Shown piece after piece: positions 22,297 through 28,119 of a stretch of DNA of 32,000 nt; the stretch's first letter is position 1; every line of letters begins with the position of its first letter. A program made the translations under genes and the position numbers. The notes below the pieces were generated by a model. It did no database searches. It saw only the letters and a program-made list of their open reading frames with translations, and was not told where the DNA came from. This DNA comes from Staphylothermus marinus F1 (GTDB lineage: Archaea > Thermoproteota > Thermoprotei_A > Sulfolobales > Desulfurococcaceae): NCBI RefSeq assembly GCF_000015945.1, contig NC_009033.1, forward strand, positions 1,290,001-1,322,000, written 5' to 3'.

Positions 22297-22485
22297 ATGG
22301 AACATGATAGAGTTAAACACTTAGAATCTATTGTTAAAGAACTAGAAGAACTAACAAATTATAGTAGAGAATTTCTCAAACTAGTTTACAGAGATAAACA
22401 TGATTACCAGATAAACATGATAATAAAAAAGGCTACAATGATATATAAAATACTAGTTGATACATCATATCATGGAGTTCTATGA
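22297..22485 (+). CDS. Hypothetical small helical protein (62 aa)
   Basis: It has an ATG start and a charged helical sequence, and it is co-directional with the TldD-PmbA-MBL genes. Short length limits confidence. Confidence 0.35.
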   Translation: MEHDRVKHLESIVKELEELTNYSREFLKLVYRDKHDYQINMIIKKATMIYKILVDTSYHGVL

Positions 22486-22529
22486 TGAAAATTAATTCTG
22501 ACCGAAAAGGATGAAGAAGGATCAACCGG

Positions 22530-22587
22530 CTGATCAGTTCGCTGAAAGCTCATCATATACTCAGACACTGGCGGTTTCCTCACCCAA
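22530..22587 (-). ncRNA. C/D box sRNA (2'-O-methylation guide)
   Basis: The minus strand reads 5'-uugg GUGAGGA(C, 22583-22577) AACCGCCAGUGU(12 nt) CUGA(D', 22564-22561) GUAU AUGAUGA(C', 22556-22550) GCUUUCAGCGAA(12 nt) CUGA(D, 22537-22534) ucag-3'. A 4-bp terminal stem (two G.U pairs) closes it. A TATA-like TTTTATATT lies 26 nt upstream of box C. Confidence 0.55.
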
Positions 22588-22618: not shown

Positions 22619-22832
22619 CAGTTATTATAAGGGGATGAACGACTCCTGCCCCATATGATAGAGGCTATATTTGCCGATGATTTTGCCAGGCCGGAGGCGA
22701 CCCCTTTATTTAATCATGTTTTCTATGACTTAGTTATTCTTTAATTATCTTGAACTGTTTAATAATATGTTTTTTGATACTTTTATAAACATAATAAAAT
22801 ATTGTTAAGACGAGTTTTGTGTGGTGTTCGTT

Positions 22833-23126
22833 ATGGCTTATACTTGGGAGCCTAAATGGGAGAAATATAGGGTTGAAGTGGACGGTATAATTCTTTACAC
22901 TTGTAGAGATAAGATTACTGGAATGATTGCTTGCCCTATATGTATACATGCAGCATCCACTTGTTTAGAAACCGAAAAAAGGCGTCCTAGAGATTATACT
23001 GTAGAAAATAGTTTCTTTTTCTCTCCGCATGATCTGATTGTTCATATAAGAGAGTATCATGCTAGAGGATTGAATAAGAAATATCTAGTTTCTTCGGAGA
23101 AAAAGTATAAGAAGTTGATAAAATGA
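22833..23126 (+). CDS. Small putative zinc-binding protein (Cys2/His-rich)
   Basis: 'ACPICIHAASTC' and 'HDLIVHIREYH' provide CxxC plus spaced His ligands. ATG 22833 lies behind GGTG, while the ORF opens at GTG 22821. The stop overlaps the next start (ATGA). Confidence 0.5.
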   Translation: MAYTWEPKWEKYRVEVDGIILYTCRDKITGMIACPICIHAASTCLETEKRRPRDYTVENSFFFSPHDLIVHIREYHARGLNKKYLVSSEKKYKKLIK

Positions 23127-23983
23127 GGTACGATATTAGATTATATGGTAACTTCACATATGATATAATAGTGATTCGAAGAGAATTGCTTAGTGAAAGA
23201 TTAGGTGGAGGAGTGTATTATTCATCCATACCTTTTATTATTGACAATAAATACAATGTGAAAATATATGCAGTTATATCTCCGATCATCTATTATAGCA
23301 GTAAACTACTGAGATACATTGTTCAAGAACATTTCTCTACGAGAACAAATATATTTAAACTAATATATAATGGAGCAAAGAGAACCATTATAGTAGTTGA
23401 TCGAGCGCCGCAAATTGATATGTGTATTAAAAGCGAGAAAGCAGATGTATCTATAGTAAATCCTGTTCTCGGAGAAGTATCAACATCGTTGCTGAGACGA
23501 ATAAGGGTGGATTCAAAAATAGTTGCAATCGATATTCAAGGATTTGCACGTATAGTTAACAAGCATAACATCATTGTTACTAGACGTACAAGTGATTCTT
23601 TAGAAGCAATTAAGTTATCAAACATAGTTCATATGAGCTTAGATGAAGCTATTCAATTAACACAGGCAAACAATATAGATCATATAACAACAAAACTTAG
23701 CAGAATAAGTAAGAATACATTATTTATAATAACAAATAGTGAAAATCCACCTATTCTAATTTTCAGAAATAAATATAGGATCATAGGATCTAGACAAAAA
23801 CCAGTACAAGACCGTACAGGAGCAGGTGATTATTTCTTAAGTGTCTTCACAAAAGAATACATTGAAATTAATGACGAAATAAAATCAATGCATTATGCTT
23901 TAAGAGAAACAACTAAATGGTTGGAGAGGAGAAATGCCTCATCGCAGTCCACCGCCCCTAAACCACCACCGCCTAACCCATAG
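23123..23983 (+). CDS. PfkB/ribokinase-family carbohydrate or nucleoside kinase
   Basis: Family motifs are 'RLGGGVYYSS' (GG lid motif), 'IITNSENP' (NxxE) and 'DRTGAGDYFLSVF' (DTxGAGD anion hole/catalytic Asp). The last ~14 codons (SSQSTAPKPPPPNP) run into a GC-rich inverted-repeat element. Confidence 0.75.
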   Translation: MRYDIRLYGNFTYDIIVIRRELLSERLGGGVYYSSIPFIIDNKYNVKIYAVISPIIYYSSKLLRYIVQEHFSTRTNIFKLIYNGAKRTIIVVDRAPQIDMCIKSEKADVSIVNPVLGEVSTSLLRRIRVDSKIVAIDIQGFARIVNKHNIIVTRRTSDSLEAIKLSNIVHMSLDEAIQLTQANNIDHITTKLSRISKNTLFIITNSENPPILIFRNKYRIIGSRQKPVQDRTGAGDYFLSVFTKEYIEINDEIKSMHYALRETTKWLERRNASSQSTAPKPPPPNP

Positions 23984-24210
23984 CCTCCCGGAGGCCTTCT
24001 GCTCGGCCTCCTCGGGAAAAACCCTAGAGGCTATGGGTTAGGTGTGTTAATTGTTATGTTGAATTAACTTGTTTGGCATAAATGCCGTTGAATATGTAAG
24101 ATATCGTTTTGTTAAAGGCAATGTATGGGTATGGCAAATTTATTAAACATGCCATATTACCGGGCGGTGGTGGTATTATGTATAACGATTTCTTGTGGGC
24201 GGTGGACTGC
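23944..24210. ncRNA. Candidate large structured RNA or DNA element: four nested GC-rich helices around a ~120-nt AT-rich core
   Basis: There are perfect nested complementarities of 14, 12 and 14 bp plus a 9-bp bulged hairpin (coordinates in the findings). It lies in a convergent intergenic spacer. The GC-rich arms contrast with the AT-rich genome. The strand is undetermined. Confidence 0.4.
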
Positions 24211-24260
24211 TCGGCATTTATATATTTTGTTTAATCATCCTTATAAATATTTGTTCGTGA

Positions 24261-24656
24261 TTAGAACGCATCAACTAGAGCGGCGGCTAGAAACCCGTGA
24301 TCCCATATTCTAGCTGCTGTAATAAATGCTTCTTCTTTAATGAATGTGCCTTTATTGACTCTATCTAGAATAGCCTCGATGAATTCTTCTTTTGTGGGTG
24401 CTCTTCCTATAAACATGGTTTTACCATTAATTATGATCTTAGGTAAATCAGCATATTCAATACCTAAAGGTTCTCCAATCCATGTATGAATAGGTATAAC
24501 TTCGACCCAAATATTTTCTTTATCGAGTAGTTCTTCTGCAATATTCCAAGCTAGCTGTAAAGCTTTCTCACTTTCCTCGTCAAAATCAAGTAAAAGCATT
24601 ACTTGAACCTTTGAAACATCAAAATCAAATATTTCCTTATCGTTATTCAATAACAT
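24261..24656 (-). CDS. Thioredoxin/glutaredoxin-fold-like protein without a CxxC motif
   Basis: The beta-alpha-beta pattern is 'VQVMLLLDFDEESEKALQLAWNIAEELL...WVEVIPI'. The C-terminal 'LPKIIINGKTMFIGRAPTKEEFIEAI' resembles small Trx-fold proteins. The protein contains no cysteine. The start is GTG-ATG tandem. Confidence 0.4.
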   Translation of the reverse strand: MLLNNDKEIFDFDVSKVQVMLLLDFDEESEKALQLAWNIAEELLDKENIWVEVIPIHTWIGEPLGIEYADLPKIIINGKTMFIGRAPTKEEFIEAILDRVNKGTFIKEEAFITAARIWDHGFLAAALVDAF

Positions 24657-24776
24657 CACCCGTTCTTAAATAATCAAGTAGTATACCTTATAATATGCGT
24701 AGAAGAATAATACGCTAGAATTACTAGGAGTGACTATTTAAAAACAAATAATTATGTAGGCGATTTAAAGAATTGT

Positions 24777-26616: not shown

Positions 26617-26645
26617 ACACCACTATCAAGAATCAAATAGGATGC

Positions 26646-26708
26646 GGGGGACAAGTCCCCCCAAGTCATCCAATACCCCCTATGGACGGGGGCGTCAAAC
26701 TTGGGGGG
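26646..26708 (-). ncRNA. GC-rich structured element (leader or small RNA) with alternative hairpins upstream of the DUF59 gene
   Basis: A 10-bp helix (26657-26666/26699-26708) encloses a 5-bp hairpin (26676-26680/26688-26692). A competing 6-bp hairpin (26646-26651/26656-26661) uses the same C-run. A TATA-like aataattatt lies ~20-25 nt upstream on the minus strand. Confidence 0.4.
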
Positions 26709-26783
26709 CGGCGCGCATGTATGAATAATTATTGTTTAAGGGTTAATAATTAATTTCCCTATGTTTTACTAAAAACAATGTTA

Positions 26784-27122
26784 CTATATGAATCTTAGGA
26801 AGCTTCTAAGCCTTGATTTCTTATTCTTGGATTCATTTTCTTTCTCAGTACCATAAACTGTTCTTCTCAGATATAATGCCCATGCTTCAGAATCTGAAAC
26901 TCTTGAATACTTTAGTGCTAGATTATATAATACATCAATTTGATCCGGGGAAGCATAGTCTAATGGTATGCCTTCTCTATTGTTTTTCTCCCATAGCTCA
27001 TAGATTTTATCCAGTATCTCTACAACAAGGGGGTCTGAGTAGAACGCTATTTTTCTCCCATTCTGCTTGCTATCATCTATTAATCTTATTATTTCATTTT
27101 TCTTTTTCTCTAATGAATTCAA
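26784..27122 (-). CDS. Hypothetical protein (~112 aa)
   Basis: The ORF has no ATG. TTG 27122 sits 8 nt behind GGAGGAG and 4 nt after the upstream stop, while the ORF opens at TTG 27149. The sequence is helical with a basic tail. Confidence 0.5.
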   Translation of the reverse strand: MNSLEKKKNEIIRLIDDSKQNGRKIAFYSDPLVVEILDKIYELWEKNNREGIPLDYASPDQIDVLYNLALKYSRVSDSEAWALYLRRTVYGTEKENESKNKKSRLRSFLRFI

Positions 27123-27126
27123 CTGA

Positions 27127-28119
27127 TTACTCCTCCAATGTTTCTTCAAATAATAGTTTTCCTAATCCCCCCTGTTTAATCTTCTCCAAAGCCCAACCGA
27201 ATCTCTCAAGTAGTACAAGGATAGCTGATTGAGGAGGAATAACTCCTTGCTCAGTAATTATTGCATCAATATATTCTGGCGGGGTAACATCGAATGCTGG
27301 ATTCAATACCTCTACATTTCTATGCTTATCTATCCATTCCTGCGGAACTATCTCTGTTGGAGACCTATACTCTATTGGTACTAGTTCTCCTATCAATGTA
27401 GCTGGTGAAAACTTATATGTTTCCGCTGCCACAAAAACTCTTACACGTGCTTCGTGAGCCGCTAACGCTACTTGGCTAGTTCCAATCTTATTAACAACAG
27501 CTCCATTACTAGCAATGGTATCTGCACCGACAACAACTTGGTCAACTTCGTTCATAATATATCTCACAGCACTATCAGGGATCTGAATAACCGGCACACC
27601 ATGCTCAGATAAGTGCTTATAAGTTATTCGTCCCTGATAAAACGGCCTAGTCTCCGTACTATAGACTTTCACAATTTTTCCCATCTTATAAGCTGTAATT
27701 ATTACTGATGCTGCAGCTGTGCTGTGACAATGAGTTAGAACAACAGCGTTATCCTTAATCCTCCTAGCACCGATCTCACCTATTTTCTTAATAGCATTCA
27801 GGCTTTCCTCAATAAATTTCTCAGCCGCATTAACAACAGCTTCTCTAAGCTCTTCCACATTTCCTGAAGCTCTACTTAAATTATACATTACATATATTAC
27901 AGCGTTTGGTAAACTAACCGCTGTAGGCCTTGTCGAGATTACTAGGTTAGCTATTCTAGACATATATTTTCGGAACTCCTCGGGATCGTTTGAGCCTTTA
28001 TAGTTTTCAGCCGCTATCTTCAATGCTTCAGCGGCAGCTCTAGCAATTTTACCAGCACCACGTATCCTCATAGTTTTTATTCCTTCAGCTATTTCTAATA
28101 CCTTAGATGGTATCTCCAT
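27127..28119 (-). CDS. eIF-2B alpha/beta/delta-family protein, ribose-1,5-bisphosphate isomerase type
   Basis: It is collinear with the Thermococcus enzyme as I recall it: 'IRGAGKIARAAA', 'TRPTAVSLPNA', 'VVLTHCHSTAA' (catalytic Cys context), 'TETRPFYQGR', 'VVVGADTIASNGAVVNKIGT' (catalytic Asp context) and 'NPAFDVTPPEYIDAIITE'. Confidence 0.75.
   Translation of the reverse strand: MEIPSKVLEIAEGIKTMRIRGAGKIARAAAEALKIAAENYKGSNDPEEFRKYMSRIANLVISTRPTAVSLPNAVIYVMYNLSRASGNVEELREAVVNAAEKFIEESLNAIKKIGEIGARRIKDNAVVLTHCHSTAAASVIITAYKMGKIVKVYSTETRPFYQGRITYKHLSEHGVPVIQIPDSAVRYIMNEVDQVVVGADTIASNGAVVNKIGTSQVALAAHEARVRVFVAAETYKFSPATLIGELVPIEYRSPTEIVPQEWIDKHRNVEVLNPAFDVTPPEYIDAIITEQGVIPPQSAILVLLERFGWALEKIKQGGLGKLLFEETLEE

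Follow-up and report, generated by a model that had tools for sequence, protein, structure and literature searches.

We report a candidate non-coding RNA (ncRNA) gene of Staphylothermus marinus F1. It is located within a contiguous stretch of 32,000 nt (here called the window, whose numbering is used throughout), in the spacer between two convergent open reading frames (ORFs). These encode a PfkB-family kinase (23123..23983, plus strand) and a thioredoxin-fold protein without cysteine (24261..24659, minus strand; 'trx-like' below). The element is probably the gene for a stable, independently transcribed minus-strand ncRNA of about 288 nt, a member of a family found beside the same two genes throughout the Desulfurococcaceae. 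Judging from sequence comparison, we assign this reading a probability of roughly 0.78. The original prediction, made from the letters of the window, had described nested helices between the ORF ends, correctly placed at 23983 (+) and 24261 (−), and had proposed an unclassified structured RNA or, alternatively, a DNA-level site. Covariation, an asymmetry of G·U pairs between the strands, a promoter, single-copy synteny and the lack of an Rfam match all favour the structured RNA. The strand, the kink-turn (K-turn) formed by the two ends and the true extent (23932–24219, with the promoter reaching to 24253) had not been recognised.

Covariation and strand

Orthologous loci were taken from assemblies with an identical or 99%-identical kinase, from Staphylothermus hellenicus (CP002051), a protein of which shares 83% identity with the window kinase, and from a metagenomic relative with a kinase of 61% identity (L004). 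A further 27 loci came from genomes (Thermosphaera, Desulfurococcus, Thermogladius and Desulfurococcaceae metagenome-assembled genomes, MAGs) and 18 from metagenomes. One metagenomic relative (L044) carries a CRISPR repeat at 819–842, about 1.5 kb from the RNA locus (Rfam CRISPR-DR45, gathering score).

The minus-strand RNAs were extracted and their terminal segments aligned. The terminal stem, formed by the extreme ends, and helix A, which adjoins it, were counted on 24 distinct sequences. Here, 97.2% of the cells are paired, and 99.7% in helix A by itself. Both sides change in 15 of the 19 pairs (12 of 15 in helix A). The covariation score is 0.62, compared with 0.22 ± 0.02 in column shuffles, none of which reached 0.62 in 500 trials; slid partners gave at most 0.135. 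The sequence of helix A is very different among the genera, as exemplified by GCAGUCCACCGCCC, GCACCCUCACUACUCAA, GCGGGGCUCACCC and ACAACCCGCUACCG. The test for compensatory substitutions in orthologous spacers, suggested with the original prediction, thus shows strong covariation of helix A and the terminal stem. G·U cells number 17 when the pairs are read on the minus strand versus two on the plus strand. Because the arms covary and the G·U pairs are one-sided, selection is seen to act on the minus-strand RNA and not on the DNA.

A putative kink-turn at the RNA ends

The terminal stem was missed in the original prediction. It is formed by AAATGCC (23932–23938) and GGCATTT (24213–24219) and lies outward of helix A, separated from it by an invariant asymmetric loop of TCATC (5 nt) versus TC (2 nt). 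Read on the minus strand, this arrangement is 5'-AAAUGCC-GA-GCAGUCC…GGACUGC-GAU-GA-GGCAUUU-3'. By sequence it is a consensus K-turn, with 5'-GA-3' opposite 5'-RAUGA-3': a canonical (C) stem, a 3-nt bulge, tandem G·A/A·G pairs and a non-canonical (NC) stem. The K-turn is the motif bound by L7Ae, the universal K-turn protein of archaea. Inspection of the plus strand showed that a K-turn cannot form there.

In the window, the NC stem consists of the 5' strand AAAUGCC (24213..24219, minus strand), which covaries between genera, and the 3' strand GGCAUUU (23932..23938, minus strand), the probable 3' end region of the RNA. The non-bulged K-turn strand is GA (24211..24212, minus strand). The bulged strand (23939..23943, minus strand) comprises the bulge GAU and a second GA, which forms the tandem G·A/A·G pairs with 24211–24212. 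Both GA and RAUGA are invariant in all 24 distinct sequences; in each of them the two strands stand next to the C stem, and the bulge is always 3 nt long. Helix A, with the pairing and covariation given above, serves as the C stem. The NC stem has 3–7 bp, with G-C, A-U or A·A at position 3b·3n, and the pairs that follow covary. Its variants between genera include GGC/GCC, AGCC/GGCU and GACC/GGUC, with A·A at 3b·3n.

Predicted promoter and extent of the RNA

The motif AAAG-TTTATAAGGG, a B recognition element (BRE) with a TATA box, was found in all 23 loci with upstream sequence (Staphylothermus, Thermosphaera, Desulfurococcus, Thermogladius and MAGs). It stands at a fixed distance from the K-turn, its centre lying 25–27 nt ahead of the point where the terminal stem starts. 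The window contains the corresponding conserved, putative archaeal promoter at 24240..24253 (minus strand), with the TATA box TTTATAAG at 24247->24240 and an A-rich BRE-like stretch at 24253->24248. The earlier view that this spacer needs no promoter is therefore contradicted. From the position of the TATA box, the start of the RNA is predicted about 23–26 nt downstream, near 24219. The predicted mature ncRNA of about 288 nt would run from 24219 to 23932 (23932..24219, minus strand), limits set by promoter spacing and the terminal stem. A scan for sigma-70 promoters and intrinsic terminators gave nothing informative, the models not being relevant to archaea.

The promoter bears on the main rival of an independent gene. 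According to this explanation, the element is a cis-acting part of the 3' untranslated region (3'-UTR) of the transcript of the trx-like gene and seryl-tRNA synthetase, the gene of which is located beyond the trx-like gene. It would be an L7Ae-bound module for stability, processing or termination, possibly releasing a small RNA (sRNA), and the same RNA structure and K-turn are implied. The trx-like gene, located on the same strand, immediately precedes the RNA, with its stop codon about 40 nt away, an arrangement that is syntenic in all loci, and K-turns in archaeal mRNAs are among the known ligands of L7Ae (PMC5539422). However, a BRE/TATA element of fixed spacing, conserved above the rest of the short spacer, would be superfluous for a pure 3'-UTR. 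We regard this explanation as unlikely.

Helices and fold of the S. marinus RNA

Searches for inverted repeats recovered the nested arms of the original prediction. Arm A (23944–23957/24197–24210; 14 nt) and arm B (23962–23973/24163–24174; 12 nt) are 100% complementary. The same applies to arm C, which at 16 nt (23972–23987/24027–24042) extends 2 nt beyond the description given before; the extra CC, its first two pairs, competes with helix B. Hairpin D was likewise found, with GGAGGCC/GGCCTCC (7 bp) and two to three more pairs over a 2-nt bulge. A 276-nt stretch folds with −125 kcal/mol on the plus strand (z = −8.7) and −122 kcal/mol on the minus strand (z = −12.0); for either strand, none of 200 dinucleotide shuffles was as stable. 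The sequence GGGCGGTGG occurs three times in the window, always inside the element, with 0.02 copies expected. The nested helices are real and far beyond chance.

Followed 5' to 3' on the minus strand, the K-turn leads into the 5' strand of helix A (GCAGUCCACCGCCC; 24197..24210). The A/B junction comes next, 22 single-stranded nt (ACAAGAAAUCGUUAUACAUAAUA; 24175..24196) that are present in all RNAs of the long class defined below, starting with ACAG or ACAA and ending with ..UACAU.A. The 5' strand of helix B (ACCACCACCGCC; 24163..24174) is part of an inverted repeat and invariant in nine of nine long-class RNAs from three clades. In the AU-rich interior of 120 nt (24043..24162), UUUGCCAUAC (CCAUACA) and AACGAUAUC are semi-conserved, and one hairpin, UAUGGCA/UGCCAUA (24130–24156), is conserved. 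Beyond the 5' strand of helix C (CCUAACCCAUAGCCUC; 24027..24042), folding indicates a U-rich bulge (UAGGGUUUUU) and then hairpin D, CCC-GA-GGAGGCC and GGCCUCC-GG around the loop GAGCAGAA (together 23988..24026). The RNA returns through the 3' strands of helix C (23972..23987), of helix B (GGCGGUGGUGGU; 23962..23973), which has 2 nt in common with C, and of helix A (GGGCGGUGGACUGC; 23944..23957). All three were identified as inverted repeats, that of helix A also by covariation.

The spacer can be aligned over its full length within the Staphylothermus clade. Arms A–D are near-invariant even at 61% kinase identity, and the AT-rich core varies. Compared with L004, the helical parts are 84–89% identical, the kinase coding sequence 68% and the AU-rich core 68%. 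Helix C shows one compensatory change and one G·U pair on the minus strand among the Staphylothermus relatives. Of three local core hairpins proposed earlier, only that at 24130–24156 is kept in relatives; those at 24046–24068 and 24075–24086 are not conserved as hairpins.

Anatomy of the family

Nearly every locus has the same arrangement downstream of the kinase: GCYTCATCGC, helix A, 150–250 nt of AT-rich DNA, the complement of helix A, GCTC(T/G)GC and, about 25–30 nt beyond this, CCCTTATAWA. Two size classes can be distinguished. RNAs of the short class (about 190 nt, range ~175–205 nt) occur in Thermosphaera, Desulfurococcus, Thermogladius and many MAGs and consist of the K-turn, a helix A of 13–17 bp and an AU-rich interior. 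The long class (about 285 nt, range ~280–302 nt) is that of Staphylothermus and two MAG clades (L019–L023; L032). Promoter, K-turn, helix A and a few interior motifs are common to both classes, and the AU-rich interior evolves fast.

Three parts are added in the long class. The one-sided junction has 22–25 nt and starts with ACAG or ACAA. It is followed by helix B (CCACCACCGCC/GGCGGUGGUGG), invariant in all nine RNAs. The third part is a 3' domain in which a GC stem around a U-rich strand (GGGUUUUU, GUUUUAC or AUAUUUUAU) is followed by a hairpin with a variable loop. This layout of stem, 5' U-rich strand and hairpin recurs with different sequences in both MAG clades, and the loop of D varies; one long-class RNA (L021) is without the hairpin of the 3' domain.

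The best-conserved interior motif is AUACAG, which in both classes forms part of UGCC-AUACAG. ATACA was counted 21 times versus 6.7 expected and is present in 13 of 20 representative sequences. The other motifs common to both classes are ACGAU(U)AUC and GGAG…GUGUUUUUAG or the related ACACUUWAGG. In one short-class clade, a tandem-G·A helix (ACGAGU × ACGAGU) was noticed by eye only.

Flanking genes

The last 17 codons of the kinase ORF (..NASSQSTAPKPPPPNP*; 23932..23983, plus strand) are antisense to the 3' portion of the RNA. The original prediction had taken the end of this protein for arms A and B read as codons, and the homologues bear this out. Wherever the RNA is present, kinases across the family end in '..R(N)ASS..', encoded by GCC TCA TCG, which is the K-turn strand read as protein. 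In four Desulfurococcaceae MAG loci (L013–L015 and L025), the kinase and the trx-like gene are adjacent with no RNA between them, and these kinases have no 'ASS' tail. Among the genera, the tails (P0004–P0012) vary wildly (..ASSHLHYSV.., ..ASSRPATPNHHRH, ..PPPPPPP), and all begin with the ASS encoded by the K-turn. The C-terminal 15–20 residues of the kinase appear to be dictated by the antisense RNA gene; the odd 'ASS…PPPP' tail arises because the 3' end of the RNA is antisense to the last kinase codons. We read this overlap as a by-product of genome compaction.

The trx-like protein has a weak match to Thioredoxin_3 (E = 1.8e-4). As it contains zero cysteines, it cannot be a redox thioredoxin. 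A search for its homologues, made to extend the phyletic range, found them in Desulfurococcales only.

Comparison with known RNA classes

No RNA in the whole window or in 20 orthologous loci matched an Rfam 15 family at the gathering score. With the threshold relaxed to E<=10, the locus and one short-class orthologue gave noise only (miRNA and snoRNA models, E near 1). The element thus retains the unclassified status that the original prediction had given it subject to such a scan. ARAGORN detected no tRNA or tmRNA in the window, and the arms contain no T-loop motif. Full-text literature searches found no description of such an RNA. Model searches, ARAGORN and inspection for boxes therefore agree with the earlier statement that the layouts of tRNA, RNase P, signal recognition particle (SRP) RNA, box C/D and H/ACA RNA are absent.

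Individual classes were rejected as follows. For archaeal SRP RNA and RNase P RNA (types A, M and T), there was no covariance-model match, and neither GAGGAAAGUCC nor a GGCUUA motif is visible. Likenesses seen by eye to CR-I/CR-IV of RNase P, to ACAGAGA/AGC of U6 and to the sarcin-ricin loop were dismissed; the partner pairings that would be required (P4) are lacking, and no match extends beyond a single sequence. A box C/D sRNA does not fit either: the order of the boxes is reversed (GA strand 5', RAUGA strand 3'), the interior of the window RNA contains no RUGAUGA or CUGA, and only 3–7 nt lie outside the K-turn. In the case of H/ACA sRNAs, the RNA ends directly below the K-turn and leaves no pocket, the bulge of the C/D domain is one-sided and AUACAG is internal.

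The comparison with guide RNAs is nevertheless instructive. Like the archaeal box C/D sRNAs, which assemble with L7Ae, Nop5 and fibrillarin, the RNA would be small and independently transcribed and build a K-turn from both ends. The bulged strand xRUGA resembles box C and the non-bulged ..GA box D, L7Ae is the expected binder, and the K-turn probably defines and protects the termini. In contrast to these sRNAs, the polarity is inverted, with the C-like strand 3' and the D-like strand 5', which turns the canonical stem towards the interior of the RNA. A C'/D' pair and guide segments are missing, the length is 190–300 nt versus 50–70 nt, and a long covarying GC helix is combined with a large AU-rich interior. 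Archaeal H/ACA sRNAs have the same K-turn polarity (NC stem to the base, bulged strand 3'), ACA-containing motifs and GC-rich stems. The present RNA differs in ending 3–7 bp below the K-turn without a pseudouridylation pocket and in having an internal ACA, not one 14–15 nt from a pocket.

Could it be an atypical guide, box C/D-like or H/ACA-like, whose K-turn recruits L7Ae with Nop5/fibrillarin or Nop10/Cbf5 while the interior pairs with rRNA or tRNA? Most archaeal K-turn sRNAs are guides, which speaks for this, as do the K-turn polarity, which is that of C'/D' and H/ACA K-turns, the ACA within the most conserved interior motif, AUACAG, and a normal C/D sRNA candidate in the same window. On the other side, there is no 5' C box, no 3' D box and no internal RUGAUGA/CUGA pair, and no room for a guide is left outside the K-turn. 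A two-sided pseudouridylation pocket is missing, the ACA is not 3' of a pocket-bearing hairpin and the RNA is three to five times as long as a guide RNA. A guide function of this kind is quite improbable.

The SRP RNA of Sulfolobales deserves mention as well. Sulfolobus L7Ae binds additional ncRNAs and mRNAs, including a K-turn in helix 5 of SRP RNA (PMC5539422). Both RNAs are rod-like, measure about 300 nt, have a 5' end that pairs with the 3' end and contain a crenarchaeal K-turn, which in SRP is bound by L7Ae; moreover, the Staphylothermus arms start GGGCGGUGG-like. Differences are the missing match to archaeal SRP models of Rfam at E<=10, the absence of helix-8 and S-domain motifs, the location of the K-turn at the very end instead of mid-helix, and the AU-rich interior. 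Our sequence-based reading is a new K-turn-capped family among the archaeal L7Ae/K-turn ribonucleoproteins (RNPs), with an architecture unlike that of C/D, H/ACA, SRP and RNase P RNAs.

Copy number and synteny

We performed a structure-aware scan for 12 nt followed by RAUGA and able to pair with a 12-mer located 100–340 nt upstream and itself preceded by GA. Applied to 368 kb of Desulfurococcaceae loci, it yielded a single perfect instance in each locus, without exception at the syntenic site that separates the trx-like gene from the kinase, and a handful of AT-rich 11/12 matches attributable to chance. Zero perfect instances were found in 1 Mb of unrelated viral contigs that served as control. 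A pattern built on helix B (GGCGGTGGTGGTTN{1,2}GGGG) was discarded: on the viral contigs it gave at least 120 unrelated matches of low complexity resembling glycine codons, none with the K-turn/helix architecture. The element is a single copy in the window and in each orthologous locus of 4–20 kb, and its syntenic position is unchanged in Staphylothermus, Thermosphaera, Desulfurococcus and Thermogladius.

These data also bear on the alternative offered with the original prediction, a DNA-level site such as an origin or recombination site, in which inverted protein-binding repeats flank an AT-rich unwinding region. The inverted GC-rich repeats around an AT-rich core have this appearance, and the arms have GGGCGGTGG in common. 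However, the arm sequences change between genera while complementarity is kept, and the strand bias of the G·U pairs (17 vs 2) has no place in such a site. The invariant asymmetric loop (5 vs 2 nt) suits a K-turn, not a palindrome. Matches to the core of the origin recognition box (ORB), a consensus from the Sulfolobus literature, number 10 in the window versus 7.1 expected, with none within 3 kb, and there is no orc1/cdc6 gene, the usual neighbour of an archaeal origin, within ±10 kb. The proposal is contradicted on all these points and is very improbable.

Of equally low probability is an mRNA for a small protein. The core contains a minus-strand ORF of 33 codons (MACLINLPYPY..), and another one of 33 codons is found in the same register in one further locus (L027). 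In S. hellenicus, however, the reading frame is interrupted by a stop at codon 9; in L004 the start codon is missing and 1-nt indels shift the frame, and short-class relatives differ by 1-nt indels within the best-conserved stretch.

The chance that the element is a miniature inverted-repeat transposable element (MITE), another repeat or the remnant of a mobile element is negligible: the terminal inverted repeats and the length of about 280 bp would suit such an element, but the present one is single-copy and occupies the same syntenic site across genera, its flanks (CCTCATC vs TCGGCAT) show no target-site duplication and its arms covary, in agreement with the original prediction, which had argued against a simple palindrome or MITE.

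Other RNA candidates in the window

A textbook box C/D sRNA candidate, not called by Rfam, is located at 22480–22537 (plus strand), extending to ~22575. Its boxes are C (AUGAUGA, 22482–88), D' (CUGA, 22498–501), C' (AGGAUGA, 22508–14) and D (CUGA, 22530–33). S. hellenicus and the relative with 61% kinase identity both retain the second guide, AGAAGGAUCAACCGG, unchanged; the first guide varies. There is an overlap between the candidate and the stop codon of a 62-aa ORF (22297..22485). The candidate is followed by a conserved stretch whose minus strand reads AUGAUGAG…CUGA and which may hold a further C/D RNA in antisense orientation.

At 26640–26720, probably on the minus strand, a GC-rich island (GC 0.65 versus a window mean of 0.36) lies between an FeS-assembly gene and the ORF 26784..27149. 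Here a long-range helix, CCCCCCAAGU/ACUUGGGGGG, surrounds a K-turn-like loop (GA…GGAUGA) and, at the apex, a CCCCC/GGGGG hairpin. S. hellenicus conserves the stems and has a different apical loop; Rfam gave no match at E<=10. This island is a candidate L7Ae-binding sRNA and possibly H/ACA-like. Another GC-rich island (22620–22710; GC 0.53) starts with TTATTATAAGGGG, a TATA-box consensus identical to that in front of the ncRNA described above. After this come GGGG…CCCC pairings and a GAUGA. The island is conserved in L004, not in S. hellenicus.

Discussion

Several observations weigh against a stable, independently transcribed minus-strand ncRNA. Transcription, the RNA ends and L7Ae binding are all inferred from sequence. 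No clear oligo-T terminator follows the 3' stem, as this region is constrained by the kinase ORF, and many short-class RNAs hold an internal U5 run that could stop archaeal RNA polymerase early. Helix B is invariant in sequence and thus lends no covariation support. Two neighbouring positions of helix C in L004 are mismatched if read on the minus strand, but on the plus strand they would be G·U pairs. The interior is not alignable across genera: MAFFT with RNAalifold recovers only the terminal helix and the K-turn stem, and the interior motifs are short and modestly enriched. No target or partner was found, antisense matches inside the window being at best 10–11 nt, which is chance level.

Judging from sequence and comparison, the 5' and 3' ends pair in a short terminal stem, continue into the K-turn (..GCC-GA-GC.. 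/ ..GC-RAU-GA-GGC..) and then into the GC-rich helix A of 14–17 bp. In the long class of the Staphylothermus type, the rod proceeds through helices B, C and D, with the 120-nt AU-rich insertion at the B/C junction. If the minus-strand ncRNA is accepted, the following mechanism can be envisaged. L7Ae, bound to the terminal K-turn, would kink the RNA, lock both ends and shield them from exonucleases. Such clamped ends could define and protect the termini after 3' trimming, which we propose because no oligo-T terminator follows the 3' stem. Staphylothermus grows at ~85–92 °C. At these temperatures only the GC helices would be stable, and the AU-rich interior may be held as a closed loop, largely single-stranded or weakly folded. 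The loop would display the short conserved motifs AUACAG, ACGAU(U)AUC and GGAG…GUUUUU or the U-rich bulge. Our best guess is that it forms the working surface of a trans-acting RNP that contacts a partner, either protein or nucleic acid; we accordingly favour, again as a best guess, a role as scaffold, decoy or regulator over that of a canonical methylation or pseudouridylation guide.

According to a more far-reaching proposal, a new class of L7Ae RNPs in archaea begins with this RNA; in such RNPs, a hyperthermostable GC clamp locked by the K-turn would present a fast-evolving AU-rich loop to a cellular machine or protein, as its decoy or scaffold. This is possible, if rather doubtful. Bacterial 6S RNA and OLE RNA, large ncRNAs of regulatory or unknown function, offer a parallel. 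They too combine a conserved closing helix with a less conserved, partly open interior, and they are lineage-restricted RNAs with a biochemical function that is not known; in OLE RNA, a K-turn is required for protein recognition (PMC9723947). Unlike a parallel by descent, this one involves no sequence or structural homology and concerns another domain of life. Moreover, the two strands of 6S RNA form a rod that opens into a central bubble, whereas a one-sided insertion or a multi-hairpin loop is found here. If the proposal were true, the role of the RNA would be analogous to that of 6S RNA or of protein-sponge RNAs. We know of no archaeal counterpart of either.

To our knowledge, nearly all archaeal K-turn RNAs fall into a few classes, namely C/D guides, H/ACA guides, rRNA, RNase P RNA and SRP RNA. 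An RNA of 190–300 nt outside these classes, equipped with a promoter, supported by covariation and capped by a terminal K-turn of the L7Ae type, would be a new type of L7Ae substrate. For annotation, the kinase tail '..NASS…PPPP' teaches that the C-terminal end of a protein can be determined by an RNA gene convergent with its own gene. GC-rich islands in the AT-rich genomes of hyperthermophiles still hide unannotated RNA genes, with at least two more candidates in the 32-kb window analysed here. The RNA beside the kinase is a well-defined candidate for functional work in the Desulfurococcaceae.

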